From NCBI GenBank assembly GCA_038046425.1, contig JBBSWG010000014.1, positions 1-49,081 of the forward strand: DNA of 49,081 bases, written 5' to 3'. This document shows positions 2,427 through 48,634 of the stretch, one piece after another (position 1 is the stretch's first letter; the number at the start of each line of letters is the position of its first letter). This stretch comes from Nanobdellota archaeon. GTDB lineage: Archaea; Nanobdellota; Nanobdellia; Woesearchaeales; GW2011-AR9. The position numbers and the translations under genes are program-made. The notes below the pieces were generated by a model. It searched no databases. It saw only the letters and a list, made by a program, of their open reading frames with translations, and was not told the origin of the DNA.

Positions 2427-2557
2427 AAGCGGGGAGAGCACCAACCCCGAGCGATACAAACTGAGTTGACCTCGGTTGCGGAGGGGGTTGTCCCTTACGG
2501 GGAGGTGCCGCACTAAGCTCTCTGAAGCGGAGAGCGAGGCTGGTGCTCTCCCCGCTT
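2427..2557 (-). repeat. 131-nt long imperfect palindrome, family A copy 1 (MITE-like or structured RNA)
   Basis: Perfect 17-bp terminal inverted repeats: AAGCGGGGAGAGCACCA at 2427-2443 and its complement at 2541-2557. The 43-nt core at 2472-2514 is identical, as reverse complement, to 47131-47173. Confidence 0.8.
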
Positions 2558-2575: not shown

Positions 2576-3586
2576 ATGGAACAGAACAAGAAACTAGACG
2601 AAGAACGGTATTCCCGACAGCTGCTGCTGCCGGAGATTGGTAAGGAAGGACAGGAAAAGATAGCGCAAGCTACTGTAGCCGTTGTTGGTATCGGCGCCCT
2701 AGGAACAGTAGCCGCTGAACTCTTAGCCCGGGCCGGCATAGGAAAATTGCTGCTGGTGGACCGCGATATCGTGGAAGAGAGCAACCTGCAGCGGCAAGTG
2801 CTGTTTACCGAGGATGATCTTGGAAGAAGCAAAGCCATCGTAGGAAAGGAACGATTGACTAGGATTAATTCCGCTATTACCCTGGAAGCATACCCCATCC
2901 ATCTTAACCGCAAAAACATCGTGTTGCTGGATAAGGCCACCATTATCCTTGATTGTACCGATAACCTGCAGAGCCGCTTTCTGCTGAATGATTATAGCCA
3001 GCAACAGAAAATTCCCTGGATTTATGCAGCAGCCATTAAGACGAACGGGTACGTCTTTCCCATCATTCCCAGTCTTCCGGAAGGAGCCTGCCTGCGTTGT
3101 TTCCTGACTTCGGAAAGCAGCAGCGGGGAAACCTGTGATACCGTCGGCGTATTAAATACGGTTACGGCAGCAGTCGCTTCCCTGCAGGTAACACTGGCCC
3201 TGAAGATAATTTTAGAGGAGATAAAGATGATAAAAATGAAATTATATTCGTTAAATGTCTGGAAGCCGGAATTAAAAGTGTTGACGGTAAAACAAAATCT
3301 GGACTGTCCTGCCTGCTGGGGGAAGTACGAGTATCTGGATGGTCTGAAAGGGGAAGAAGAGATCAGGACGGTTCAATTCTGTTCGACCGGGCGATATCAA
3401 ATAGTAGGCCGGCCGCAGGAGCTTAAAGAAATTCAGCGACGCTGGGAGAAGATTGATGAAGTAAAGCGGGATGATGGCTTGCTACAGTTTAAGAATATCA
3501 TTTTGTTTGCTGATGGGAGGGCGTTGATTAAAGCGAGGTCGGAGCAGGAGGCGTTGGTAGCGTATGCGAAGTGGGTGGGAGACTGA
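2576..3586 (+). CDS. ubaA: ThiF/MoeB/UbaA-type E1-like adenylyltransferase
   Basis: YSRQ..., Rossmann motif VVGIGALG, SNLQRQ, a catalytic-type Cys in ETCDTVGVL, and two CxxC pairs (CLRC, CPAC). ATG 2576 is preferred over the track start at 2543, which lies inside repeat A. Confidence 0.8.
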   Translation: MEQNKKLDEERYSRQLLLPEIGKEGQEKIAQATVAVVGIGALGTVAAELLARAGIGKLLLVDRDIVEESNLQRQVLFTEDDLGRSKAIVGKERLTRINSAITLEAYPIHLNRKNIVLLDKATIILDCTDNLQSRFLLNDYSQQQKIPWIYAAAIKTNGYVFPIIPSLPEGACLRCFLTSESSSGETCDTVGVLNTVTAAVASLQVTLALKIILEEIKMIKMKLYSLNVWKPELKVLTVKQNLDCPACWGKYEYLDGLKGEEEIRTVQFCSTGRYQIVGRPQELKEIQRRWEKIDEVKRDDGLLQFKNIILFADGRALIKARSEQEALVAYAKWVGD

Positions 3587-5784: not shown

Positions 5785-6225
5785 ATGAACAATATGAAAC
5801 CAAAAAGCCTTAAAATACAAATAGGAATTTTCTTTATTTTGGCTGGTTTACTTGCTTTATGGTTACTCCTAGTTCTTATTGATGGATTACTATTCAATGC
5901 TTTAGGATTATCCTTTTACGAAGAATACTTTTTTCGCTATCTTTTATTTTTTGGACTGCTTGCAGTTGAAATTTTTGGTTTAATAAAAGCAAAAAAATGG
6001 TCTTATTATTTAGGATTCATTTTAACTATTTTTCTCCTAATTTATACTGGGTTCAACTTACTTCTAATGAAAGGTCCAATCTACGATGTTAATTACACTA
6101 TTTTATCAACAAGCGGCCTCATAAAAGCATTCTTTGTTTGGTTTTTGGGCAGTATAATTCTTTTGTTCATACTAACATATTCGACATATAAACAATACAG
6201 GCTCAAAGAAATATTAAACAAATAA
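5785..6225 (+). CDS. hypothetical polytopic membrane protein
   Basis: 146 aa with about 4 hydrophobic helices. The local composition is AT-rich relative to its neighbours. Confidence 0.5.
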   Translation: MNNMKPKSLKIQIGIFFILAGLLALWLLLVLIDGLLFNALGLSFYEEYFFRYLLFFGLLAVEIFGLIKAKKWSYYLGFILTIFLLIYTGFNLLLMKGPIYDVNYTILSTSGLIKAFFVWFLGSIILLFILTYSTYKQYRLKEILNK

Positions 6226-6382: not shown

Positions 6383-6420
6383 AATTGCGGCACTTAAATC
6401 CCTTCGTAAGGGGGGTGGGC

Positions 6421-8439
6421 ATGGAAGTCGAAGAACAAATCCGCATATTCCGGGAATTCTTGGAGCAGAACTATTACCCCCAGCTGCTGGAAGGCGTCCG
6501 GAAAGGACAAAAATTCTTCGTCATTGACTTTACTGAACTGCTACGCTTCAATCCGGAACTGGCCGAGGAGACCCTAGAAGCGCCTACGGAACTGCTGAAA
6601 GCAGCAGAGCTCGCGGTAAAAGAATTTGACCTACCGGCAACGATTGACAAATTTACCGTCCGCCTGCGTAACCTGCCCCTTACTCAGCGGGTGCAAATCA
6701 ACGAAATCCGCAGTAAACACTTAAATAAATTCATCTGGACCGAAGGTATCGTCCGGCAAAAGTCGGATGTGCGCCCGCACGTCACTGCCTCCCGCTTTGA
6801 GTGCCTGGCCTGTGGGGCAATCATTACCATCTTCCAGTCAGATAAGCGTTATCGCCAGCCGACGCGCTGCTCCTGTGGCCGGGAACGAAAATTTAAAGAG
6901 ATCTCCAAAGAGCTGATTGACGGGCAGGGATTGACCCTGGAAGAGGCGCCAGATGAGCTGGAAAGCGGCCAGCCGAAACGCATCAATGTCTTCCTGAAGG
7001 ATGATTTAGTCTCACCGATCTCAGAACGACGTTGCAGTCCAGGCTCACGGATACGTTTATACGGTTGGGTAGTAGAAGTGCCCGTAATCCTGCAGAAGGG
7101 GGGACAAGCAACGAAATTTGACTTGATCATAGAAGCGAATTATGTTGAGCCGACGCAGGAAGAAGATGTGGACATCCAAATCAGTGAAGAGGAATTGGTG
7201 AAGATTAAAGAAATTGCGGCTCAACCGGATGTTATCTCTAGACTGGCCCATAACATCGCTCCTTCCATCTACGGCCATGACAAGATCAAGGAAGCCCTAG
7301 TGCTGCAGTTGGCGGGCGGTTGCCGGAAGGTCCGTCCAGACGGCATCACGACGAGAGGAGACATGCATCTGCTTTTAGTGGGCGATCCTGGTGCGGCCAA
7401 GAGCCAGCTCCTTAAACGCATCTATAAAATTGCCCCCCGCGCCCGATTTACGAGTGGAAAAGGAGCGACTGCCGCCGGCATCACCGCCAGCGTGGTCAAA
7501 GACGAGTTTTTAGGCGGCTGGAGCCTGGAAGCAGGAACGCTAGTGTTAGCAAACCGCGGCTTTGGTATCATTGACGAAATGGACAAAATGGGAAAAGAAG
7601 ACCGCTCAGCGTTGCATGAAGCGATGGAACAGCAGCAAGTAAGTATCAGTAAAGCTAATATTCAGGCGACGTTACGCTGTGAAACGACAGTTATTGCTGC
7701 GGCCAACCCCAAACTAGGCCGCTTTGATCCTTATGAAGATATCTATCGGCAGATTGACCTGCCACCGACGTTGATTAACCGCTTTGACTTGATCTTTCCC
7801 ATCATGGACCGGCCCAGCCGGGAACGGGATGAAGAGATGGCTTCATTCATTCTTAAGCTGCATCAAAATCCGGCAGCTGCTTCTTCTGATATCCCCTCTG
7901 ACCTGCTTAAAAAATATTTTTCTTACGTTCGTCAGAAAATCCATCCGGTGATGAGTGATGAAGCGATTGAAGAACTTAAGCAGTATTATGTCAGCATGCG
8001 CAGTTCCGGCATCACCGAAGGGGAAATATCTACCATACCGATCACAGCCAGGCAACTGGAAGCTCTGGTACGCTTATCCGAAGCGGCAGCGAAAGTTCGC
8101 CTGTCCAAGACCGTCAGCAGAACCGACGCCCAGAAAGCGATTGAGATGATTGATTACTGCTTAAATCAGATAGCCAAAGACGTGAAGACGGGAAAGATTG
8201 ACATTGATCGGCTGAGTGGTGCGGTCCCCGCTTCCCAGCGCAGCAGCATTGCCATCATTAAAGAGATTATCATCGCTTTGGAAGAGCAGACGGGCAGTAA
8301 AGTGGTAGCGGTAGAGAATATCGTAGAAGCTGCTCGCGAGAAAAACGTCAAAGAGGGTGAAGTGACGGACATTTTAGAAAAGCTGCGCCGTTCTGGGGAC
8401 ATCTTTGAACCTAAGCGCGGCTTTGTACAGAAATTATAG
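6421..8439 (+). CDS. mcm: MCM replicative helicase
   Basis: Zn finger CLACG...CSCG, Walker A GDPGAAKS, Walker B IIDEMDKM, and NRFDLIF. ATG 6421 with an SD is preferred over TTG 6385. Confidence 0.95.
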   Translation: MEVEEQIRIFREFLEQNYYPQLLEGVRKGQKFFVIDFTELLRFNPELAEETLEAPTELLKAAELAVKEFDLPATIDKFTVRLRNLPLTQRVQINEIRSKHLNKFIWTEGIVRQKSDVRPHVTASRFECLACGAIITIFQSDKRYRQPTRCSCGRERKFKEISKELIDGQGLTLEEAPDELESGQPKRINVFLKDDLVSPISERRCSPGSRIRLYGWVVEVPVILQKGGQATKFDLIIEANYVEPTQEEDVDIQISEEELVKIKEIAAQPDVISRLAHNIAPSIYGHDKIKEALVLQLAGGCRKVRPDGITTRGDMHLLLVGDPGAAKSQLLKRIYKIAPRARFTSGKGATAAGITASVVKDEFLGGWSLEAGTLVLANRGFGIIDEMDKMGKEDRSALHEAMEQQQVSISKANIQATLRCETTVIAAANPKLGRFDPYEDIYRQIDLPPTLINRFDLIFPIMDRPSRERDEEMASFILKLHQNPAAASSDIPSDLLKKYFSYVRQKIHPVMSDEAIEELKQYYVSMRSSGITEGEISTIPITARQLEALVRLSEAAAKVRLSKTVSRTDAQKAIEMIDYCLNQIAKDVKTGKIDIDRLSGAVPASQRSSIAIIKEIIIALEEQTGSKVVAVENIVEAAREKNVKEGEVTDILEKLRRSGDIFEPKRGFVQKL

Positions 8440-9121: not shown

Positions 9122-9137
9122 TTATGGTTGAAATTGT

Positions 9138-9229
9138 AACTGAAACTTTTGCATTTTTATCTAATCTAGGCAAAAGTTTCGAGCCTGCACTTTTGCCATT
9201 TATACCTAAAACGCAAAAGTGCAGGTAAC
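9138..9229 (+). repeat. double-hairpin repeat, family H copy 1
   Basis: Hairpin 1 pairs GAAACTTTTGC (9142-9152) with GCAAAAGTTTC (9170-9180). Hairpin 2 pairs CCTGCACTTTTGC (9184-9196) with GCAAAAGTGCAGG (9213-9225). It is homologous, in inverted orientation, to 34155-34258. Confidence 0.8.
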
Positions 9230-9253
9230 GGAATGTTTTTCTGTGGAAAAATT

Positions 9254-19943: not shown

Positions 19944-22900
19944 TTATCCTCTTCTTTTTTTGGCCAGTTCCTTTAACTTAGCAAACAAATCCTGGGCTTC
20001 ACTCTTACTGGCAACTTTATGAATACCCTTCCCTTGAGCCTGCCGGGAAATTGCTTCCAACTGGGCAAAGACGCTCTTCTCTTCCGGCCGCAGTCCAGGT
20101 TTGAGCTCCTCTTTATGCTCCGCGTAGACCTCAGCCAGCTGCTGCAGTTTTGGCAAATGTTCAGCTTTTCGTTGCAGCACGTTTTCAATATGGGGGATGC
20201 GGCTAGAGTCTTTAGTAAATTCTCTAAAAATAGTTCCCCGTTGCTGCGCTTTTTCCTTCTCCCGGCGGGCTTTTCTGAGCTGTAACAGTTTTTGTTTCCA
20301 GGGTTCTAGGAGAGAGGTGCGTTCCGCTGCTGGTGCCCGTCCCGCGAGACTAGGCAACGTTGGTGTTCCCCGCTTTCCTGACACTTGCCCAAATTTATAT
20401 AATTTATAGTAGTAGATAATAAGATATCCTGTCCCGGCTGCGACCATCACCAATCCCATAATGAGTAAAATCCAGGCGAGATAATTTGATTTCTGAAGAA
20501 ATGACGGCTCCCCTGGTTCTTTCTTCGGTTTCTCCTCTCCAGGTTCCTGATCTATTTTCACCGGGGCATCAAAGCGGCAGGGATCCTGCGCTTTCCGATA
20601 CTCATCATGATTGCCAAAAGCATCTTGATCGTAATCTTCCTGTCCATCCGCAATACCATCCGTATTAGAGTCCGCCTTCATAAAGTCCAGCTGGCATTCC
20701 GTAGCATGGTACATTTTCTCCCAATAATCCGGCAGGCCATCGTTATCAAAGTCAATGCTGCGGTTAAATTCAGGAGTTTGACCATCGGCACAACCCTGTG
20801 CATCGACAACGTCACCCGCACCCGTAGCGGGACAGAGATCACAACTCGTTCTGTCGCTAATTCCATCGCTGTCCGCATCAGTAAAGGAAATCTGCCGGCT
20901 TCCAGAAATATTCTTGCCAGCATAATTCTCCGCAGTATAACAAAGCCAGCCGTTGCTGGTGAACGCAAGTTGCTGGCCCAAATAATTCTGATTGGCAACG
21001 CAGGAATTTAAGGAAGCATGCTGTCCATACTTGATCTTGCTTACGCCTACAGCATCCTGATAATGCAACTCGGCATTGATCGAGGTACAGGAAGAACTCT
21101 CATTAAGCACGATGTCAATGACCGGAGCTGCTGCCTGCTTACAGAGGGTGTGATTGCTTGACGTTACCAGAACACCATCGCTTTCTGCCGGCAAGCTGAG
21201 CCAGCCGGCTCGATCCTGTACCTGTACCCGTGCTTTATATTTGTGGCTTTCATTTAAGCTGGCAACCGGTATCTCCAGCGGCAGCCCGGCGGACCAGCTA
21301 CCGTTAAGGATGAACGTTCCTCCCAGTGTACCACCTATCGTTTTGCTGGAGCTCGGCAAACTCGCTAAACTGGTGGCAGTTTTATTGCTGATAAACGTGG
21401 TGAGCTCAGGCGTTGATGAAATCTGCAGCCCCAAATCGTAGATTTGGTACAGATAATTGCTGACGTTCTGCTCACCGGTATAAATAAAAATCTGTAAGGC
21501 CGGGCTGCCGCAAGTAAGGTTTCCATCTTCCATCTTCGTAATGTTCGGCGGCGTTAGATCGATGGTAAACCGGGATGTCGCTTCCACCTGATGATCGCCC
21601 AAAGTACAACGTAACGGAATCTGATGATATTTCTCCGTCAATCCATAAAACTCCTGGGTATGGACTTTATCTCCCGTAACCGCCATCAGGATATGCTGTC
21701 CATTGTCCCGCCATTCACAGAGGGCAGACTTGCTGGTCTGAACGGTAACATTCAGGGAGGTGAAAGGTAAATAGTCTCCATCCGGCCAGACCGAGGTAAG
21801 GCCGCCTACCTGGCGGTAATCCACCGTAAAATTGATGGTGCGCAATTCTGAAAAATCGCCGGCCGCATTCCGGCACATCGTCGTCAGGGTAAAATCTTTG
21901 GTTAAGCCGGTAAAGGTGTTAACATTAAATCCCCGGCGATGTTTGGTGTGAAGGATTAAAGGTAAAGAAGGATCAGCTCCCGCCACTTCCCCCTCGGCTC
22001 CGGGAAAGGCAAAATTCATCAACGTGTACTGATCATGGCCAAGATCGCTGTACTTGCAGAGCGTCTTATCGTCAGTTTCTGCCACTACATCAACTTTCGT
22101 ACCCTCTAGCAACAGCGGCGGCTCCGTTTCCGCCTTGGTGATAATAGGGGGAGAAGGATCATACTCTAAATTCATTTTCTGTTGTGGGCCTACCTCTCCA
22201 TCAAGATTCTTACATTTTACATAAAGTGCTTTCACCCCGCCGATTTCTGAGTAGGGGGAAGCACCGCTATTATTGGGAAATGGGGAGAAGAGGTATCTCA
22301 TCTCGGGCGTCGGGGAAAGAACCCGTAAGGCGGGCACGGTATCATAGGTAAATGCCGGCAGAAATTCAAACCGGCATTCCTGCGTCGGCACTTTAGTGAG
22401 GAACTGCCAGTCAAAACTGGGTTTATTGCTGCTGCCCCATTGCTCATCGAGATAGTAATGAAGAAGCGGCTTCTCTAACATGATGCCATAGCCTTCGATG
22501 GACACTGTCCCACACTGGGGTGAATATACTGCCGTCTTCCCTTGATCGGTGGAATAATAACAAATTTCCGTCGAGTTCTCCAGCGTGAAGGTAGAGGAGT
22601 ACTCTTTATAATTTGGACTGCTCAGGTAATAGCACCCCTCGCCCAGACAATAAAACGTTTTATCGCAGGTGAAGCCTTCCGCTGTACATTCAAAATCTAC
22701 CTCGACGGCATCAATAAAGAACTCTTTCCAGCCGAATAAGGTGGGCTTAGCCACTCGTTTTCCTTCCCGCAGCACGATTTGGCTGCTGGGCGGGGTAAAG
22801 TCAACCGTGAAAGAAAAGAAATCTTCATACGTTTCTGGCGTCAATAACTCCCGGCAGATGATTTTATGCTCACCATTGTATTTCCCTTCAATAAAGCCGG

Positions 22901-25900
22901 GGACGAAAGGCGTTTCATGTACTTTTCCCTGCTCGTCGCTCAGGAAGTCAGCGATTTTCTCATTGCTGCTGGTCTTATACAACTCGCAGCGAGCACCAGC
23001 GGCGGTTGCTGTCCGAAACTTAATTTCCGGCGAGGAAACAATGCCCTTCAATGCCGGATGAACAATATCAATGCGCTCTTCTAAATCAAAGGTAAGGCGG
23101 TCCGCTTTCTGATTGGCATTGCCCTGGTTGTCGGTACAGGTTACATTCACGTCATAAATTACGCCCGGCAGATTTTCGTAAACCGCCTCTTTTTTCTGCT
23201 CTTTGGTGAGCGCTTTAACCTGTGTTTCTCCCAGCGGCAGGACGCTGGTTACGATAAATGAGCAGGCCATAGGCTCATTCGTTCCTTCTAAATACACCGT
23301 CAACTTAGTCTTATCCGCGAGCGTTATTTCTTTATGATTGATCTCAAATTGCGGCAAGACATTATCCACAAACACGAACGTTTCCTGGATGTTTTCCTGG
23401 TTGTGGTATTTGTCGGTAGAGTAAAATTTTAGGCGATAAGTCTCGCCGTTGATTTTCTTTTGCAGGAATGCTGACTCTAAAAGATTAACGGTTACCAGTT
23501 CCTGAGTTTGTATTCCGGGATAGGATACCTGGGAATTCCTAAAATCCTCCGTCGTACAGAAACTTTGGGCATCGGCAGCAGCGCTGGTCAGGCAATAATG
23601 GAACGTGCCCAGGGCATTTTTCTGGGAAGGAAAGGGATGGAAATCATCATTCCCCAAAAAAGTTGCGTTGGGAGTGGCGTGTGAGATTACCTGCATCCCT
23701 TCCGGAACGGTTACCGTATGGGGCGGGCTGACATCTAGTTTACAATTTTGTCGCTGGGCACCGCTGGTAAAGCCAGTACAATCATCCTGTCCATCACCAT
23801 CGCCATCTTTAATGCAGGAACCGGGTGAAAAGCTGTCGTGAGCGCCTTGCCAGCTGCAGCGTTTCCAGCTACAGCGGTCAGCAGAGGGAATGATCTCGCC
23901 AAAGGGTGTTCTGTGGATGTTGCTGGAATCACTACCGGAACCAGCACATTCCAGTTCCGTAGTATAGCTATAACAGTTAGCATTTTTGGTGGGCACGTCA
24001 CCACAGGAATTACATTGACTGAGCTCCGAATCAGAAAAACATTTTCCTAAAGCGGAGCAGACTTGCGCGTTACAATAATAATTTTCAAATACGGTAGCTG
24101 TTTTACTGCAACGGGAACATTGGTCGTCATCATCATACTTTTCCTGCACACAGTAGCCATGCCCCGTTTCCGGCGTTACTAAGCCGGGCATATTGAGAAC
24201 ACCGTAATCAATGATTGGTTCCGAGTTAGCAGCAGCGTCAACCCAGGCACATTTCGCACCTAAACAATTGTTAATCGTACAGGCATCATTGCTTTGATAT
24301 TCAAAACAGCTATTGAGTTCCGCACAGCTCGTACAGCCATTGACGATAGATTTTGTATAGTCATAGTAGCAGAAATTAGTAGCCTCTGCCGGATCAGCAG
24401 CCCCGTAACAGGTAAAGCGGGAATAATATAAGCCAAACGGATCGGCAAACAGGTTACAGGGACCGGCATCCTGGCAATCAGCCCTGAACTCGGAGATGGA
24501 GGAACAGAAATAATTCTCGCCGGGGCCGTCACGCCCGGCACAATTTTGCACCGTAGCCAGCTTATTTTCATTGCTGCAAGTGTATACTGTTTTCCGCACA
24601 GCTGTATTCCCCACCAGGCAGAACGTTTCCCAGCCAGCACTTTCATGATAGCGTTCTTCGCATTCTTTATCACCGAGCGTGATGGTTCGTACGGTTTCAG
24701 CTGCTGATTGCTTAGTAGGATATTGTGCTTTGATGCTGTAAGTATAGGTTTGTTCCCATTCGACTTTATCATCAAGGTAGGAATTCTGGGCCGGGGAGAA
24801 GATGAACGGTTCCGGTTCTCCCTCTTCAGTTTGTTTCGTAACCAGATAACCGATCACTTCCGGGCAGGGCTTGAGCCATTCTAAACGAACCTGCTTCTTT
24901 CCCGGCACGTGTTGCAGCGAGAATTGTTCTACGTTCTTCTGCTCCTCAGCTTGTCCTTCGGTACATTCGCCGACATAGGCAGTCAAAAGTAGGTTACCAA
25001 GATCAACCAACTGGCCTGCAGCTACCGTGAATGATTTTTCAGCCTGAAAATTCAAGTGCGTGGCCGTAATGGTGTGCTCCCCTTCCAACATACTTAACTC
25101 AAATGTTCCTATTTCCTGAAGATCATCAGAATATTGTGAATAGCCGCGGAAATTGCCATCAATATAGATTTTAACCCCATATTGCTGCTCATCAATATCA
25201 GCTAGGCTATTCCCATTAGCATCAACCGCTGTTTTTCCTTTTACCCCCTGTACGGCAGCCAGGCTTAACGTAAAGTCTTCCGTCTGCTCGGCCGTGAGCT
25301 GAACTTGCTTTTGCTGGGGCTGATAATTGATCTTGCTGGCGGTGATGGTATATTGTCCTGAGACTAACTCCGTAATCACATAATTTCCGGCCTGGTCACT
25401 ATAAACCTGCCCGCTGGCTGGACCGGTCCAGGAGATGGTAACTCCAGAAAGGCCAGTTCCAGTTAAAGAATCAGTAACCGTCCCTAAAACTTTCAACGCC
25501 CCGCCAGCGCTCAACGTTACCGTTTTCTCAGCTACTTGGCCCGAGCCCAGAGAAATGGTGGCTGAAGCTGATTGAAACCCCGATTTTGTGACCGTAACCA
25601 GATAGCTGGAAGGGTTTAACCCCGTGAATTCAACCCGGCCATCACTTCCCGTGGTTCCCGACTGGGCTACGCCCTGAATTTGTACTAAAGCGTCAACAAC
25701 CGGTCCCTGAGCATCCCGCACCGTAACTCTGATTATCCCTGGCTGTACTTCAACTTGACAGAGCTGCTGGTTACAGCTGGCTACCGTCATACCAACAGGA
25801 TTATCATACTGCACGACAGGATTAGGAGGGGGAAAACCTAATTTCTTAGCCATATCATCACACTGAAACTTATTTAATCCAAACTGACAGAATTGGTTGC

Positions 25901-26276
25901 TGATTTTACAACAGCCGGGTGAGCAGTAAAAGTTGTATTGGTTTTCTGGTACAGCTACTCCTCCCAGATTTTGACATTTTCCCAGGGCATGCTGCTGACA
26001 ATCAGCAGAACAGGTCACGAGCTCACACTCCGGAACGATACTGCAATCCTGCCCCGGCAGAAAATATTGCGACAGGCTGCAGCCAGGATGAGTATCACAA
26101 TCTTCCGCCGCTTCCGTGTCAAGTGTATCGAAAACGCAGTAGAGATCTTCGCTGGCGCTAGGGTAGATGTAACAGCCCGCTACTTGTGCCTGAGAATTAA
26201 AAGCGTTAAGAAGGAAGAATAAAACTACCAGTAGTACTAAAGCTACAATAATCGGGCCTCTTTTTAGTACGCTCAT
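19944..26276 (-). CDS. giant (2110 aa) Cys-rich cell-surface protein with a C-terminal TM anchor and cytoplasmic tail
   Basis: N-terminal signal. CarboxypepD_reg-like beta-sandwich repeats at about 25250-25740. Long Cys-rich tracts. Aspartate-rich repeats like thrombospondin type 3 at 20577-20885. TM helix at 20406-20483. A 153-aa K/E/Q-rich tail. Confidence 0.85.
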   Translation of the reverse strand: MSVLKRGPIIVALVLLVVLFFLLNAFNSQAQVAGCYIYPSASEDLYCVFDTLDTEAAEDCDTHPGCSLSQYFLPGQDCSIVPECELVTCSADCQQHALGKCQNLGGVAVPENQYNFYCSPGCCKISNQFCQFGLNKFQCDDMAKKLGFPPPNPVVQYDNPVGMTVASCNQQLCQVEVQPGIIRVTVRDAQGPVVDALVQIQGVAQSGTTGSDGRVEFTGLNPSSYLVTVTKSGFQSASATISLGSGQVAEKTVTLSAGGALKVLGTVTDSLTGTGLSGVTISWTGPASGQVYSDQAGNYVITELVSGQYTITASKINYQPQQKQVQLTAEQTEDFTLSLAAVQGVKGKTAVDANGNSLADIDEQQYGVKIYIDGNFRGYSQYSDDLQEIGTFELSMLEGEHTITATHLNFQAEKSFTVAAGQLVDLGNLLLTAYVGECTEGQAEEQKNVEQFSLQHVPGKKQVRLEWLKPCPEVIGYLVTKQTEEGEPEPFIFSPAQNSYLDDKVEWEQTYTYSIKAQYPTKQSAAETVRTITLGDKECEERYHESAGWETFCLVGNTAVRKTVYTCSNENKLATVQNCAGRDGPGENYFCSSISEFRADCQDAGPCNLFADPFGLYYSRFTCYGAADPAEATNFCYYDYTKSIVNGCTSCAELNSCFEYQSNDACTINNCLGAKCAWVDAAANSEPIIDYGVLNMPGLVTPETGHGYCVQEKYDDDDQCSRCSKTATVFENYYCNAQVCSALGKCFSDSELSQCNSCGDVPTKNANCYSYTTELECAGSGSDSSNIHRTPFGEIIPSADRCSWKRCSWQGAHDSFSPGSCIKDGDGDGQDDCTGFTSGAQRQNCKLDVSPPHTVTVPEGMQVISHATPNATFLGNDDFHPFPSQKNALGTFHYCLTSAAADAQSFCTTEDFRNSQVSYPGIQTQELVTVNLLESAFLQKKINGETYRLKFYSTDKYHNQENIQETFVFVDNVLPQFEINHKEITLADKTKLTVYLEGTNEPMACSFIVTSVLPLGETQVKALTKEQKKEAVYENLPGVIYDVNVTCTDNQGNANQKADRLTFDLEERIDIVHPALKGIVSSPEIKFRTATAAGARCELYKTSSNEKIADFLSDEQGKVHETPFVPGFIEGKYNGEHKIICRELLTPETYEDFFSFTVDFTPPSSQIVLREGKRVAKPTLFGWKEFFIDAVEVDFECTAEGFTCDKTFYCLGEGCYYLSSPNYKEYSSTFTLENSTEICYYSTDQGKTAVYSPQCGTVSIEGYGIMLEKPLLHYYLDEQWGSSNKPSFDWQFLTKVPTQECRFEFLPAFTYDTVPALRVLSPTPEMRYLFSPFPNNSGASPYSEIGGVKALYVKCKNLDGEVGPQQKMNLEYDPSPPIITKAETEPPLLLEGTKVDVVAETDDKTLCKYSDLGHDQYTLMNFAFPGAEGEVAGADPSLPLILHTKHRRGFNVNTFTGLTKDFTLTTMCRNAAGDFSELRTINFTVDYRQVGGLTSVWPDGDYLPFTSLNVTVQTSKSALCEWRDNGQHILMAVTGDKVHTQEFYGLTEKYHQIPLRCTLGDHQVEATSRFTIDLTPPNITKMEDGNLTCGSPALQIFIYTGEQNVSNYLYQIYDLGLQISSTPELTTFISNKTATSLASLPSSSKTIGGTLGGTFILNGSWSAGLPLEIPVASLNESHKYKARVQVQDRAGWLSLPAESDGVLVTSSNHTLCKQAAAPVIDIVLNESSSCTSINAELHYQDAVGVSKIKYGQHASLNSCVANQNYLGQQLAFTSNGWLCYTAENYAGKNISGSRQISFTDADSDGISDRTSCDLCPATGAGDVVDAQGCADGQTPEFNRSIDFDNDGLPDYWEKMYHATECQLDFMKADSNTDGIADGQEDYDQDAFGNHDEYRKAQDPCRFDAPVKIDQEPGEEKPKKEPGEPSFLQKSNYLAWILLIMGLVMVAAGTGYLIIYYYKLYKFGQVSGKRGTPTLPSLAGRAPAAERTSLLEPWKQKLLQLRKARREKEKAQQRGTIFREFTKDSSRIPHIENVLQRKAEHLPKLQQLAEVYAEHKEELKPGLRPEEKSVFAQLEAISRQAQGKGIHKVASKSEAQDLFAKLKELAKKRRG

Positions 26277-30961: not shown

Positions 30962-31618
30962 TTATCCTTTCACCCCCACCACCATCTCTCCATACGCGCT
31001 TAATTCCGCGGGTATATTTATTTTTCGCAGGAGAGTATTCTGAAATCCGGAATCACTCACCACCATCCCTCCCCCGGCCAGCTTCTCCACAATGTTCTGC
31101 TCATAATCTGGATGTGGCTCTTTCATGATCCGAAAGGCCCGCTCAAAATAAAGATTAAAATGGGGTAAAGAAGAAGGCAACGTCGAAATAATTTCAAAAA
31201 TATTTCCTTCCCGGCAGGTGAGGGTAACCAGAATTTCTTTCCAGTAGAAAGAAAGGGCTTTCCGTTCTTCTCCATCCCGTTCTTTTCCAGGTTCTTCTCC
31301 GAAGGACAAACCGGCATCGTCCAGAATAGTCCTGATGGCTTCCTGGACGGGGTAAAGGTCAACGAATAACAAGTTAGCTTTCTCCAGCTTAGGAAAAAGG
31401 TGTTCAAGGTAATATAATGGCCAGAAAAGGTCGGCTCCCGAGCCGGGATAGAGTACCGAGACTTCTTTATTTGGAAAGTTTGGCAACTGTTTTAACCATG
31501 ATAACTTTTCCCACTCATCCTGGAAGAAAAATTGCTTGATTTTTTCTCCATCGTGCTTATTTGTACGCAATCCTTGCGGCGGGACTTTTCGCGGGATGAG
31601 GGAAATGAGGTTGTTCAT
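30962..31618 (-). CDS. hypothetical protein, possibly a Rossmann/SAM-methyltransferase-like fold
   Basis: 218 aa. YPGSGADLF followed by LLFVDLYP resembles methyltransferase motifs I and II. This is weak evidence. Confidence 0.4.
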   Translation of the reverse strand: MNNLISLIPRKVPPQGLRTNKHDGEKIKQFFFQDEWEKLSWLKQLPNFPNKEVSVLYPGSGADLFWPLYYLEHLFPKLEKANLLFVDLYPVQEAIRTILDDAGLSFGEEPGKERDGEERKALSFYWKEILVTLTCREGNIFEIISTLPSSLPHFNLYFERAFRIMKEPHPDYEQNIVEKLAGGGMVVSDSGFQNTLLRKINIPAELSAYGEMVVGVKG

Positions 31619-31712
31619 AGAGGGTTTTGAATGAACTGTATTTTTATTATGTGGAATACGCCGCTGCTAACGTCGCCTCAAGACCCTCCAGTGAGGGGAG
31701 GCTAAGGTCTAA
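31619..31712 (+). repeat. intergenic repeat, family C copy 1
   Basis: AGAGGGTTTTGAAT...GTGGAATACGCCGCTGCTAACGTCGCCTCAAGACCCTCCAGTGAGGGGAGGC aligns by eye with 39404-39497, and partly with the reverse complement of 41265-41331. Confidence 0.7.
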
Positions 31713-31782: not shown

Positions 31783-32679
31783 ATGCCCGTCTCTCGGCCA
31801 GCCTCCTGGTTCTTATTGTCCCTATTATTCCTTTCCTTCTTCCTCCTGGCCTGTTCCAAAGAGGAAAATGTCACCGGAAGCTCTACCCGCAGCATCAGTA
31901 CGCTTACCGTTGTTGTTCGTGATGAAACCGGGCAGCCCTTGCCCGAAGCTAAAGTCTATCTGAACCAAGAATTCAAAGGGAAAACCAGCAAATACGGCAG
32001 CAGTGCCGGGACGCAAACGCTGGTGCTTACCGCTTCAGAAAATAAAATCGTCGTACGCAAAGAAGGCTATGCGGATTCTCTGCCGGTTACGGTCAGTGCC
32101 GCTGAGGGTGAGCAGTCGATTACGTTAATCCTGGAACTGAAAAAAGCAGTATATCTGGTGAGTGTCGAGCAGGACAATACGCCGATGGGCGGGGTGCGAG
32201 TGACACTCTTCCCGGAAGGCAGCAGTCTTCCGCTAGCGGTGGAAGAGACTGATTGGCATGGTGATGCTTTTTTTTCTGATGTTTCTGATGGCACCTATAT
32301 CATTACTCTCAGTAAAGAAGGATATGAGATCCAGCGCTGGAAGAGAGAGATTGATTATGCTAAAGGGGGAGAATTTGCCTCCAGTATGTTTGAGCTGGAA
32401 CCCAGTGCGGGGTTACAGGTTAAGGTGTATGATACATCTGGAAATTCGCTGGCTAATGCGGAAGTGACCCTCTATGCGCTGGCTGAATATAATGAGCCGG
32501 GAACACCATTACCTTTAGCGGTGGAATATACGTCCCGGGAAGGGATAGCAGAATTTACTTCCGTAGACTATGGTAATGCTTATGTAGTGCAGGTGAAAAA
32601 AGCAGGATATGATGCGGAAATGGAAGAGATTGTTCTCTTTAGTGGTAACCGCGTTCTCTCTATCGAATTAAACCGCTAA
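31783..32679 (+). CDS. lipobox-containing surface protein with four CarboxypepD_reg/PEGA-like repeats
   Basis: The signal ends in FLLAC-S. There are repeated modules of about 65 aa, each ending in K(E/A)GY... (VRKEGYAD, LSKEGYEI, VKKAGYDA). Confidence 0.65.
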   Translation: MPVSRPASWFLLSLLFLSFFLLACSKEENVTGSSTRSISTLTVVVRDETGQPLPEAKVYLNQEFKGKTSKYGSSAGTQTLVLTASENKIVVRKEGYADSLPVTVSAAEGEQSITLILELKKAVYLVSVEQDNTPMGGVRVTLFPEGSSLPLAVEETDWHGDAFFSDVSDGTYIITLSKEGYEIQRWKREIDYAKGGEFASSMFELEPSAGLQVKVYDTSGNSLANAEVTLYALAEYNEPGTPLPLAVEYTSREGIAEFTSVDYGNAYVVQVKKAGYDAEMEEIVLFSGNRVLSIELNR

Positions 32680-34091: not shown

Positions 34092-34337
34092 AGCAGAGGA
34101 CGGCGCCGGCGGGCTCGCCGACGCGGGCTACCGTTCCCGTTGCTTAGCGTCGCTTCCGGAACCTGCACTTTTGCGTTTTATGGTAAGTGTATACATTAGC
34201 AAAAGTGCAGGTTCGGAACTTTTGCCTAGATTAGATAAAACTGCAAAAGTTCCGGAAACAAGCAGGCGTCGGATAGACGGACGAATCTCTGTAACCACCA
34301 CCGCTCGCCCGCCTCTTTGGCGGCCGTCCACTGCTTC
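34089..34337. repeat. GC-rich long palindromic element hosting family H copy 2
   Basis: The outer arm GAAGCAGAGGACGGCGCC (34089-34106) pairs with GGCGGCCGTCCACTGCTTC (34319-34337). The element begins on the stop codon of the upstream CDS. Confidence 0.6.
34155..34258 (-). repeat. double-hairpin repeat, family H copy 2
   Basis: ACCTGCACTTTTGC (34161-34174) pairs with GCAAAAGTGCAGGT (34199-34212). GGAACTTTTGC (34215-34225) pairs with GCAAAAGTTCC (34243-34253). It is the reverse complement of copy 1, including the 17-nt loop of one hairpin. Confidence 0.8.
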
Positions 34338-34368
34338 ACTGGGGTGAAGTATTACTAAAGTGAGAAAG

Positions 34369-38986: not shown

Positions 38987-39415
38987 ATGAAAAGAGCTAA
39001 AAAAGTCGTCATCTGCTTCGGCACCTTTGACCTGCTGCATTTAGGGCACCTGCACTATTTTCGGCAGGCCAGGAAACATGGTGATTATCTTGTTGTGGTC
39101 ATTGCCCGGGATCGTACCAAAAGAAAGCAGAACAAAAAAACCATCTTTAACGAGCTGGAACGGCTGCAGATGGTACAGAGCCTAAAGTTGGTGGATAAAG
39201 CCGTTCTCGGTCATCCCCGCAATCACTTTAAAATCATCATTAAGCACAAACCAGAGGTTATCTGTTTAGGGTATGATCATGCGATCAAAGAGAAGCGGTT
39301 GGCGAAAGAACTGGGGAAATATAGGTTGTATCCAGAGATTAAGAGAATGAAAGCGTATAAAGCTGGAAAATATAAAGGAGGGAAGATGAAAAAGTTCATC
39401 CTTAGAGGGTTTTGA
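38987..39415 (+). CDS. cytidylyltransferase-fold nucleotidyltransferase (RibL/FAD synthetase-like)
   Basis: 142 aa. GTFDLLHLGH (the HxGH motif) followed by VVVIARD, with the size and layout of archaeal RibL/TagD-like enzymes. Confidence 0.6.
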   Translation: MKRAKKVVICFGTFDLLHLGHLHYFRQARKHGDYLVVVIARDRTKRKQNKKTIFNELERLQMVQSLKLVDKAVLGHPRNHFKIIIKHKPEVICLGYDHAIKEKRLAKELGKYRLYPEIKRMKAYKAGKYKGGKMKKFILRGF

Positions 39416-39497
39416 ATAGATCGTGCTTTTCTACGTGAAGTACGTCGATTTCAACGTCGCCTCAAAACCCTCCAGCGTGGGGTACGAGGTTTCTGTT
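39404..39497 (+). repeat. intergenic repeat, family C copy 2
   Basis: AGAGGGTTTTGAAT...GTGAAGTACGTCGATTTCAACGTCGCCTCAAAACCCTCCAGCGTGGGG. It starts inside the last codons of the upstream CDS. Confidence 0.7.
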
Positions 39498-46243: not shown

Positions 46244-46870
46244 ATGTCACTGGAAGGAAAACTTAGTGGATTTATGGATAAATTTAATGACAGATTTAAT
46301 AGATCGTTAAGCCGTTCTGGTGCTGCTTATTCCCTGGCTGTTGGCCTGGCTCTGGGCGTGGCCTTCTCTGGTTGTGCGCCGAAGGATGAAGGGGAGAACG
46401 AGAACACTATCCAGCGCTATAACTGCGCTATGAATGAATGTCTTCCTGACCCAAATGGGCCGTATGCAGTTTCAGACTGTAATAATGAATGTGGTGGGGC
46501 AGGTAACGGAGATGGTGGTAACGGGCAGCAGATGGATTACCTAAGGGCTACGAAAGATGGAGTTCCGATATGTCCTTTGGGGTGGACTCAAGGTATCAAT
46601 GCATACGCAACAGGTGGGAGCATAATTGTAGGTGGCAATTGTGTTGGTGATCATATCCAGATGGAATTTGGGCCTACTCCCTCACCAGGTGGTTCGGCTC
46701 CTTGTCTTTGGATATTACAAAAAGCCTTCCCGGATGGTCAATGTCCTTCACTTGAACTCCTTTCCGGCCAGGCTACTGTTACTGGCAGCACCGGTTCCTT
46801 TCGTGTTGCCGGCAACTGTTCTTGTGATCCCTATTCTGCCGAATTTAGTTTGCCATTAAGCGTGCTGTAG
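46244..46870 (+). CDS. secreted Cys-rich protein with a lipobox-like signal
   Basis: 208 aa. The signal ends in AFSGC-A and is followed by multiple Cys pairs. No family recognised. Confidence 0.5.
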   Translation: MSLEGKLSGFMDKFNDRFNRSLSRSGAAYSLAVGLALGVAFSGCAPKDEGENENTIQRYNCAMNECLPDPNGPYAVSDCNNECGGAGNGDGGNGQQMDYLRATKDGVPICPLGWTQGINAYATGGSIIVGGNCVGDHIQMEFGPTPSPGGSAPCLWILQKAFPDGQCPSLELLSGQATVTGSTGSFRVAGNCSCDPYSAEFSLPLSVL

Positions 46871-46947
46871 GTTTAAGAGAATTCTCGGTTTTTTAGATTA
46901 ACTTTTTATTTTTGCTTCATCTTCACTTCAGTAATACTTCACTATTC

Positions 46948-47083
46948 TGAAGCATGACCAGCATCCTAAGGTCAAAACTCCTGCGGGTTTAGAAGCAGGC
47001 GCGTCGCGGGGGGTTGCCCCCTATGGGGACGCAGCGCCTTTCGAGAACACATCAAGAGTTTTGAAGATGCTGGTCATGCTTCA
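46948..47083. repeat. 136-nt long palindromic element, family B
   Basis: The perfect 18-bp arms are TGAAGCATGACCAGCATC (46948-46965) and GATGCTGGTCATGCTTCA (47066-47083). Inner stems are TCAAAACTC/GAGTTTTGA and GGCGC/GCGCC. The core GCGGGGGGTTGCCCCCTATGGGGAC (47006-47030) is related to the family A core. Confidence 0.75.
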
Positions 47084-47086
47084 CGG

Positions 47087-47311
47087 GAAGCGGGGAGAGC
47101 ACCAGCCTCGCTCTGCGTTTCTTCTACCTCAGTGCGGCACCTCCCCGTAAGGGACAACCCCCTCCGCAACCGATATCAACTCCGCTTGTATCGCTCGGGT
47201 AACGAAGGACACAAATATTTATACCGATTAGTTGTGTCCTTCGAATATAATAAGTGACTATTGGTATAATTATTAGGGTCACTTATTATAAATTGGTGCT
47301 CTCCCAGCTTC
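47087..47311 (+). repeat. family A copy 2, carrying an insertion of about 94 nt
   Basis: GAAGCGGGGAGAGCACCA (47087-47104) pairs with TTGGTGCTCTCCCAGCTTC (47293-47311). The core at 47131-47173 is identical to the reverse complement of 2472-2514. Extra AT-rich hairpins lie at 47203-47243 and 47252-47284. Confidence 0.8.
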
Positions 47312-47374
47312 AGGATAGTGAAGTATTACGTAAAAAGTTAACTTTTAAAAATACCACCCTTTTTTACCGCTCTG

Positions 47375-48634
47375 ATGATTTCCTCCAACCAAGACCAGAC
47401 CTTCAACCAAGACCGGACTTCATTCATTCCATCCCCTCGTTCTGCTAACCACTACCATTCCTACAACTACGGCGAACTTCCGCAGGGCTGCCAGTACTGC
47501 GTCCGCGGCGAGAAGTTGGTCTATTTTGTTACCGGGCTCTGCCCACGGAAATGCTCTTTCTGTCCGGTTTCCGATGAGAAATTCGGGCAGGATATCACTT
47601 TTGCCAATGAGCGGAAAGTATTCAGTGAGCAGGAGCTTCTGCTGGAGGCGAACGTAATGACGGCCAAAGGAGCCGGTATTACCGGTGGCGATCCGCTGGC
47701 ACGGCTTCCTCGCACCATTGCATTCATCCGGCTGATGAAGCAACAGTACGGAAAACAGTTTCATATCCATCTTTACACTTCGCTTAATTTAGTTACGGAG
47801 CAGGCTTTGCAGCAGCTTTACGATGCCGGGTTAGATGAAATCCGTTTCCATTTAGATTTAGAGTCGGAACAATTCTGGTCCAGGCTGCTGCTGGCTAAAA
47901 AATTCCCCTGGAAAATAGGCGTAGAGTTGCCCGTCATCCCGGGCCAGGAACCAGAACAGAAAAAAGTTATCAATTATATCCACGGTAACATTGATTTTCT
48001 GGTGTTAAATGAGTTAGAGGTGGCGGATAACCGCCAATCTACCCTGTTGCAGCAGGGCTTTACGACTAAAGACCAGTGGAGTTATGCGGTAAAAGGCTCT
48101 TTGGAGGCAGGACAGGAATTATTAGATTATATCCAACGGCAAGGCTATTCTTTCTCAGCGCATCTTTGTACCGCCCGACTTAAAGATAAGGTGCAGCTGG
48201 GTAATCGGCTAAGACGGGAAGCACAGGGAGCCAGAAAAAAGTTTGATCAGGTAGATGAAGAAGGCCTGCTTACGAGGGGAGCGTTATATCTGCCGGAGCT
48301 GGTGCCGGGCTTTGGCTATCGGAAGAAGTTAGAAGCCTGTAATAAGTTAGAAGCTAGTAATAAGTTTAATAAGCCCGAACTTCTGGAAAGATTACGCTCT
48401 TTGCTCTCGATGATAAAAGAGGATTGCCGATTGACGAACGAGGAGATCTTTTTGGACAGGGAAAAGCCCCGAATTCTGCTTTCGGCGAAGAAAATCAAGC
48501 CGCTGCAGAAGAAGTTCCGCCGGTGGGGATTGATTCCGGCCATCGTCAAGGAATATCCGACGGCGGATCAGTTAGAGATAGAGGTGGAATTGTTTGGGGG
48601 AGACGGGGTTGGAGGGAGACGGAGTTGGAACTAG
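47375..48634 (+). CDS. radical SAM protein (PflA-related, COG2108-like)
   Basis: CxxxCxxC in GLCPRKCSFCP, preceded by CQYC. A TATA-like CTTTTAAAAATA lies about 25-30 nt upstream of the ATG. Confidence 0.75.
   Translation: MISSNQDQTFNQDRTSFIPSPRSANHYHSYNYGELPQGCQYCVRGEKLVYFVTGLCPRKCSFCPVSDEKFGQDITFANERKVFSEQELLLEANVMTAKGAGITGGDPLARLPRTIAFIRLMKQQYGKQFHIHLYTSLNLVTEQALQQLYDAGLDEIRFHLDLESEQFWSRLLLAKKFPWKIGVELPVIPGQEPEQKKVINYIHGNIDFLVLNELEVADNRQSTLLQQGFTTKDQWSYAVKGSLEAGQELLDYIQRQGYSFSAHLCTARLKDKVQLGNRLRREAQGARKKFDQVDEEGLLTRGALYLPELVPGFGYRKKLEACNKLEASNKFNKPELLERLRSLLSMIKEDCRLTNEEIFLDREKPRILLSAKKIKPLQKKFRRWGLIPAIVKEYPTADQLEIEVELFGGDGVGGRRSWN

Follow-up and report, generated by a model that had tools for sequence, protein, structure and literature searches.

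Prokaryotic MITEs are small, non-coding, multi-copy intergenic elements with terminal inverted repeats and fixed-length target-site duplications; they vary in presence between relatives, yield stable stem-loop transcripts and can be nested (PMC10969869). The archaeal examples in a 2024 review come from Sulfolobus (SM1–SM4), Halobacterium, Haloquadratum and Desulfurococcus, with none from DPANN archaea, and target duplications are described there as fading with age (PMC10969869). A bulk survey with MITE-Tracker gave a very high MITE density for one 'Woesearchaea' genome and described no families (PMC11602168). Two further types of short palindrome invite comparison. The bacterial ERIC/IRU and Correia elements are imperfect palindromes of ~127–155 nt, often located within transcription units, whose co-transcribed hairpins alter mRNA processing or stability; cleavage by RNase III at Correia and by RNase E at ERIC has been shown in bacteria (PMC10969869). 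IS200/IS605-derived palindromes and the REP/RAYT system are hairpin-centred, short and abundant, with structure prevailing over sequence; they have neither terminal inverted repeats nor duplications and are linked to a Y1/HUH gene.

Here we report a 131-nt hairpin module (copy A; 2427–2557, + strand) within a 49,081-nt stretch of Nanobdellota archaeon DNA (contig JBBSWG010000014.1; hereafter the window). Copy A very likely belongs to a large, apparently undescribed MITE-like family of Woesearchaeota and Nanoarchaeota (DPANN archaea). The family shares with prokaryotic MITEs all the properties listed above, its stem-loop transcripts being predicted, and the likeness to named MITEs is one of described features. 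Three traits set it apart. MITEs are typically AT-rich, whereas these elements are richer in GC (55–63%) than the genome (46%); a parent insertion sequence was not found; and one and the same hairpin module, with its G/C-run apex, serves two classes of ends whose duplications measure 8 and 9 bp. ERIC/IRU and Correia, the best analogy for copy A in its mRNA, differ in being bacterial, unrelated in sequence and flanked by TA-type duplications, and their effects are experimentally established, whereas an effect here would be predicted from the sequence. Unlike the IS200/IS605-derived and REP/RAYT palindromes, the family has duplications and lacks a recurrent neighbouring gene. Our literature searches turned up neither the motif nor any account of a MITE family in Woesearchaeota.

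The outer 17 bp of copy A (2427–2443, AAGCGGGGAGAGCACCA) pair without mismatch to 2541–2557 (TGGTGCTCTCCCCGCTT), and the arm pairing reaches 23 nt at 91%. Just inside the arms lies a tandem-GA helix (CCGAGC/GCGAGG). The centre is a 43-nt block (2472–2514, +) made up of an inner stem, GCGG/CCGC, and the apex; it is identical, as reverse complement, to 47131–47173. The 21-nt apex (2483–2503, +; GGGGGTTGTCCCTTACGGGGA), a G-run, a C-run and a further G-run, is the signature of the family; the window contains this centre three times, where chance predicts 0.00 occurrences. The 131-mer folds to −72.7 kcal/mol as RNA (z = −6.3) and to −39 kcal/mol as DNA (z = −6.5). A covariance model, R1, built from 34 GTAT-class hairpins taken from other genomes and from module 1 of the 47-kb element (see below), with copy A kept out of the training set, covered copy A end to end (2428–2557; 30 bits, E = 1.5e-4). 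Scanning the window with R1 revealed nothing else credible beyond the family members reported here.

The second locus is a composite element of 399 nt (46931–47329), in which an outer inverted repeat, GTAATACTTCACTATTCTGAAGC (46931–46953) and GCTTCAGGATAGTGAAGTATTAC (47307–47329), encloses two modules. Module 1 (46950–47083, +) is a GTAT-type hairpin with arms GAAGCATGACCAGCATC and GATGCTGGTCATGCTTC and an apex at 47009–47029, scoring 129 bits with R1, to whose training set it belongs. Its arms are unrelated to those of copy A and its apex (GGGGGTTGCCCCCTATGGGGA) is nearly identical. Module 2, or copy B (47080–47312, −), has its apex at 47142–47162 and arms at 47088–47104 and 47296–47312 that pair with one mismatch. 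Between its arm and its body sits an AT-rich insert (47200–47296; 97 nt, 29% GC) containing two small hairpins, AAGGACACAA...TTGTGTCCTT and AATAAGTGAC...GTCACTTATT, and TATA-like stretches ~150 nt upstream of a radical-SAM gene at 47375; no second copy of the insert was present in the window or the fetched loci. A groundwater Woesearchaeote (L028) has a composite of the same two-module architecture, whose outer repeat is perfect over 15 bp. An exact copy of the outer-end motif stands alone in the spacer before an NFACT-domain gene (GTAATACTTCAC..., 34332–34355, −) and is possibly the relic of another element. Comparable solo motifs are present at over ten further loci.

Copies A and B are homologous over 120 nt (2446–2565 versus 47080–47199) at 88% identity. 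Their 14 differences lie at 2460, 2462, 2470, 2471, 2560 and 2562, with the other eight within 2515–2530, the only patch in which half of the positions differ. Given 14 differences in 120 nt, a clean 43-nt run has a probability of about 0.02, so the centre is better kept than the flanks, though modestly. The earlier note, which drew attention to this element, was right about the perfect 17-bp arms of a 131-nt palindrome and about the 43-nt core shared with 47131–47173. It erred in describing the segments between arms and core as 16 nt long and completely different: they measure 28 and 26 nt, and only 2515–2530 is half different. Its claim that conservation is concentrated in arms and core holds for the modestly cleaner centre and fails for the remainder, the homology running through all 120 nt. 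It also missed both arms of copy B, the third hairpin at 46950–47083 and the outer repeat around the two modules. Copy B is oriented opposite to copy A and occupies the non-coding spacer from 46870 to 47375; a sense-strand role common to both is therefore not apparent.

The window contains further repeats. A second, unrelated palindromic family with the motif CAAAAGTGCAGGT occupies two intergenic sites (9134–9233 and 34154–34261), whose arms are complementary to each other over 63 nt (89%) and 27 nt (93%). A direct repeat of ~80 nt (31618–31698 and 39403–39482; 77–79% identity) carries the hairpin CCCTCCAGTGAGGGG 85–160 nt upstream of two + strand genes, at 31783 (CarboxypepD_reg/Ig-like) and 39644 (AhpC peroxiredoxin), and may be a shared promoter or leader. 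By far the largest open reading frame in the window encodes 2110 aa (19944–26276, −).

A degenerate form of the 21-nt apex, GGGGGTTGYCCCYTAYGGGGA, identified at least 113 loci in at least 55 species-representative genomes. Among the matches listed, nearly all were labelled Woesearchaeota, Nanoarchaeota or 'archaeon', one came from a single-cell genome, and several genomes had 7–11 loci each. In viral contigs, the exact apex gave no match. Every copy around the apex is a long hairpin. The copies, mostly intergenic and in either orientation, measure ~130–170 nt, or 300–400 nt for composites, and their coding capacity is limited to spurious short open reading frames. Some records named 'uncultured Methanosarcinales archaeon' also carry the family (L010, L022, L026, L074 and other CAY.../CAZ... 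TPA_asm MAGs). These labels are probably wrong, since a Woesearchaeota MAG encodes a protein with 81.5% identity to one at L074. One match lay on a contig binned as 'Bacilli bacterium' (L086), probably through binning contamination.

All modules share one anatomy: a long, near-perfect palindrome of variable sequence, a tandem G–A inner helix, a short inner stem and the G/C/G-run apex. Class GTAT elements (130–135 nt) have mutually paired ends, GTATGTGCATAGCATC or GTATTTGTTTAGCATC. Inwards follow a conserved asymmetric loop and a helix AGGUCRAAAYYC/GRRUUUYGAAG, and beyond a stretch of variable sequence come the inner stem, which is short and covaries, and the apex. Class GGCT elements (158–169 nt) end in GGCT-N8-AAAT, which forms an outer stem. 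This encloses a small extra hairpin, CCGAGCGAAGCGAGA, and the long hairpin, which contains a tandem-GA helix that is self-complementary (as in GCGAGC/GCGAGC) together with the inner stem and apex. Because the MAFFT alignment of this class was too poor for RNAalifold (nine trivial pairs), we relied on per-sequence folds, in which the delimited elements formed an outer stem, the long hairpin and the small hairpin. The copies in the window represent a third arrangement with GTAATAC... ends and outer repeats GTAATACTTCA..., the complete form of which consists of two modules head to head. Combining the inner stem of copy A with the apex in a metagenome scan retrieved three loci, of which two represent the L112 element, and these three left the ends of copy A's subfamily undefined. 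L112 (equivalent to L120 and L121; core at L112:1723), whose inner stem is most like that of copy A, has 18-nt direct repeats, ACTTTCTCAGAAACGGCT, on its two sides, which far exceed the 8–9-bp duplications of the other classes.

The invariance of the apex across the 113 loci is in part ascertainment, as the loci were retrieved with the apex itself. In 19 extra copies found by the model, with an apex off the pattern, the G-run, C-run and second G-run were kept while the loops varied (TTG/TCG/AAG/ATG/AGG and CTAC/TTAC/ATCC/CTCC). The one C-run is able to pair with either G-run. Conservation of the runs in these independently found copies hints at a function beyond that of passive selfish DNA. 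Secondary insertions of 40–70 nt lie in or directly after the apex at L045:4545–4742, L056:2244–2414, L071:870–1037, L080 (~888–1113) and L041 (~5887–6112), a pattern that suggests that the apex may be a preferred landing site for other small elements. The apex is the family's most unusual trait, alongside the use of one module by classes that differ in ends and duplication length and the variation of inverted ends among copies within a genome.

Evidence for mobility comes from the boundaries and the dispersal of the elements. Of 106 non-redundant elements, 13 had perfect 9-bp direct repeats beside GGCT... inverted ends, all of class GGCT, and 8 had perfect 8-bp repeats beside GTATGT/GTATTT... 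ends, mostly of class GTAT; swapped-flank controls gave 0.25 perfect repeats, with a maximum of 1–2. The terminal inverted ends (GGCT..., GTATGT..., GTAATAC...) match at 8–10 of 10 positions. Copies with identical arms occur in different flanks of one genome (for example, L013 and L073). Relative to neighbouring genes, 24 copies lie in the same orientation, 22 in the opposite one, 21 between divergent and 13 between convergent genes, and the flanking genes are unrelated housekeeping genes. Inverted ends also differ between copies within one genome, with their complementarity intact, which would be unusual if one sequence-specific transposase reads the ends.

Inverted ends of the IS903 type (9-bp duplication) and the IS6 type (8-bp) begin GGC(T/A)CTG.... 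We take the GGCT-class ends, GGCTCTGT.../GGCTTTGG..., with their 9-bp duplication, to resemble IS903-type ends (IS5 family), and GGCTCTGTTGCAAA-type ends presumably occur in the IS6 family (8-bp duplication). An IS5- or IS6-like transposase was not found near any copy in the window or the fetched loci. No protein family recurred within 2.5 kb of the copies, and the ~0.9 Mb of fetched loci, with more than 130 copies, contained neither a multi-copy protein nor a transposase; none was detected by Pfam among the 18 open reading frames of the window. Searches for an autonomous parent, using inverted GGCT 15-mers 0.5–3.5 kb apart and orphan and long-range pairs of eight end sequences, returned nothing convincing. 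In size, lack of coding capacity, inverted ends, fixed-length duplications, dispersed copies and empty sites, the family conforms to the usual definition of a MITE, the parent element, for which no candidate was found, being the exception.

The genomic context of copy A provides the empty sites. It lies between ncsA (1455–2393, +), encoding a PP-loop tRNA thiolase, and ubaA (2576–3586, +; ATG at 2576), encoding a ThiF-type E1, in an operon whose first gene encodes a ThiS/SAMP-like ubiquitin-fold protein (1174–1377, +). The ncsA–ubaA spacer measures 182 nt. In genomes whose NcsA is 83–84% identical, ubaA starts 2 nt past the ncsA stop codon (L116) or overlaps ncsA by 8 nt (L117–L119), and the family model found no match at these loci. 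With the two genes 2 nt apart or overlapping, these junctions are empty sites for the element. The genome of L116 (nzgw59) contains the family elsewhere, at L006. In an independent assembly of the window's organism, a contig breaks within the 43-nt repeat; this is a typical repeat-induced break, and the insertion exists in that sample too. GCA_964469545.1 encodes a protein with 100% identity to the window's NcsA, and named homologues, from ~71% identity downward, are Woesearchaeota or Nanoarchaeota proteins. With Woesearchaeota as the best homologues, a Methanosarcina origin, which the SAMP/ncsA/ubaA context might suggest, was rejected. The L116 genome also differs at the MCM helicase, which has 684 aa and no intein in the window (6385–8439); the L116 orthologue (L116:6449–6933) is 1232 aa long and carries an intein as well as a LAGLIDADG domain, a further presence/absence difference of a mobile element.

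Copy A itself looks like a solo module of the composite's second type with eroded outer ends. An outer-end motif is common to copy A, the 47-kb composite, L028 and L063. From the outer repeats of 46931–47329, L028 and L063, and from the spacer length, the full inserted element would span 167 nt (2409–2575, +), with CATAATT (2411–2417) and AATTACTG (2565–2572), which are loosely complementary, as its candidate decayed ends. A weak candidate for a decayed left target-site duplication is ATGGACAAA (2400–2408, +), with ATGGAACAG (2576–2584), the start of ubaA, as its partner; they match at 6 of 9 positions, with boundaries picked after the fact. Taken as a duplication, they would delimit the 167-nt element (2409–2575) and leave an ancestral spacer of 6 nt. 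Neither of the two complete composites seen, 46931–47329 and that at L028, has a target-site duplication, which counts against the mobile reading for the GTAATAC... class to which the window's copies belong. Because its outer ends are decayed and a convincing duplication is lacking, copy A is probably an immobile relic.

Several proposals of the earlier note can be judged at this point. It offered three readings, a functional RNA, a protein-binding module and a non-autonomous mobile element; the last is supported at the level of the family, through dispersed copies devoid of open reading frames, inverted repeats, 8- and 9-bp duplications and empty sites, of which the 2-nt spacer at L116 and the 8-nt overlaps at L117–L119 are the instances that concern copy A. 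The suggestion that copy A was recently active fares poorly in view of its decayed ends and the absence of a clear duplication. Target-site duplications exist in the family (13/106 at 9 bp and 8/106 at 8 bp); copy A has a candidate matching at 6/9, and the composite showed none. The census extends the two copies first noted to the loci in at least 55 genomes that share the apex. Synteny also argues for the proposed placement inside one transcription unit, since ThiS, ncsA and ubaA are tightly packed head to tail in relatives. A functional RNA found no support, as set out below.

We propose that the modules are carried between terminal inverted repeats, two classes being flanked by 8- or 9-bp duplications. 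Duplications of fixed length would stem from the staggered cutting of a DDE-type transposase acting in trans; no candidate for it was found in the window or the fetched loci. In the window's lineage, an element would have landed at the ncsA/ubaA junction, converting a tight or overlapping pair into one spaced by 182 nt, and afterwards lost its recognisable ends. Neither a T-run terminator nor a TATA-like box suitably spaced from the ATG is present between the hairpin and ubaA; copy A is therefore most likely transcribed within the SAMP–ncsA–ubaA mRNA, with ubaA presumably expressed by read-through. A hairpin of ~−70 kcal/mol in this mRNA would uncouple translation of ubaA from that of ncsA. 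As with ERIC and Correia in bacteria, it may also affect how the mRNA is processed or how stable it is. Since the genes that it separates are in contact or overlapping in relatives, copy A is most probably selfish DNA and no dedicated RNA gene.

A mobile origin is compatible with a later takeover of the ncsA–ubaA copy by the host as an intercistronic regulator, acting as a processing site, a stabiliser or a translational uncoupler. The 17-bp arms still pair without mismatch, in contrast to the decayed outer ends and duplication, if any; ubaA must be expressed through the hairpin, as neither a T-run nor a TATA box intervenes; and bacterial MITEs act in this manner, RNase III cutting Correia and RNase E cutting ERIC (PMC10969869). 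However, the case concerns a single locus, relatives function without the element, and palindrome correction at the DNA level can also produce perfect arms. We regard such a takeover as unlikely.

The retention of arm shape rather than arm sequence would be accounted for if the elements moved as single-stranded DNA hairpins by means of a structure-specific enzyme, in the manner of IS200/IS605 derivatives, REP/RAYT or rolling hairpins. Ends that vary between copies of one genome yet remain complementary, DNA-like mismatches, a hairpin that is stable as DNA, and the secondary insertions in or beside the apex at L045, L056, L071 and L080 all fit this route. It is nevertheless improbable: known Y1/HUH systems do not make fixed 8–9-bp duplications, as two classes here do, true terminal inverted repeats are present, and neither a TnpA/RAYT-like nor any other recurrent gene lies nearby. 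Integron attC sites, which form same-orientation arrays between cassettes with R-box GTTRRRY ends and intI nearby, were also rejected; the present copies are single, dispersed and in both orientations, with ends of GGCT, GTAT or GTAAT and no shared neighbour gene.

Pairing within the family is strong enough to raise the question of a structured RNA, encoded by a small RNA gene or acting in cis within an mRNA, and spread by function and not by transposition. In the GTAT-class alignment, 95.3% of cells are paired, compared with 42–46% in controls with slid partners, and in 24 of the 35 pairs both partners have changed. Such family-wide complementarity with many double changes, together with kept apex runs and variable loops and the cleaner 43-nt centre of copies A and B (P about 0.02), would suit an RNA. 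The sense strand is also slightly more stable, folding 2.5 kcal/mol better on average by a measure that includes the G-rich apex. The mismatches point the other way. G–U (16) and A–C (16) are equally frequent in the stems, and other mismatches (40), the transversion type, exceed both. RNA under selection would accept G–U far more than A–C; their equality indicates that the strands are equivalent, as in a randomly decaying DNA palindrome. Orientation relative to genes is unbiased, inverted ends with fixed-length target duplications and empty sites in relatives speak against an RNA gene, and the sequences read contain no conserved promoter or terminator beside the copies. Rfam gave no match in the window at the gathering score, and permissive scans yielded miRNA-hairpin noise alone, far below threshold. 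A functional RNA is thus very improbable. By eye, the internal loops were also compared with a kink-turn, bulge–helix–bulge, tRNA T-arm, box C/D and hammerhead, all of which were rejected with the needed nucleotides out of register.

The paired arms are best explained, from the alignments, as a property of the DNA. Their near-perfection despite sequence turnover may come from recent copying, from 'quasipalindrome' correction on a template or from transposition itself requiring the hairpin, with RNA selection the less likely cause. A local duplication or chance palindrome confined to two copies, to which the two close copies in the 49-kb window and the rarity of the exact inner stem and apex in metagenomes (three loci) might point, is refuted by the apex census, with the same architecture at all those loci and 0.00 chance matches expected, and by the covariance model that ties copy A to the family, and its probability is negligible.

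Copy A is thus best read as a member of a MITE-like family that is frequent in tiny, streamlined DPANN genomes, with several copies per genome in many lineages. With no transposase in the ~0.9 Mb around its copies, the question arises as to what mobilises it: an uncommon resident element, the archaeal host or a virus. For practical purposes, the family is a handy marker of strain variation and a cause of assembly breaks in metagenome-derived genomes, and its palindromes should not be annotated as small-RNA genes. The translationally coupled SAMP–NcsA–UbaA operon for thiolation and SAMPylation appears to tolerate a hairpin of ~−70 kcal/mol at a position where the genes overlap in relatives. More speculatively, the G/C/G-run hairpin module might be a functional nucleic-acid device, since classes that differ in their ends and in duplication length share it and its arms remain paired while their sequence turns over; we hold this to be quite doubtful. 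Were it a handle for transposition, a structure-guided rather than sequence-guided system would operate in transposase-poor DPANN genomes, and were it a binding site for a conserved host protein, each insertion would become a regulatory hairpin.
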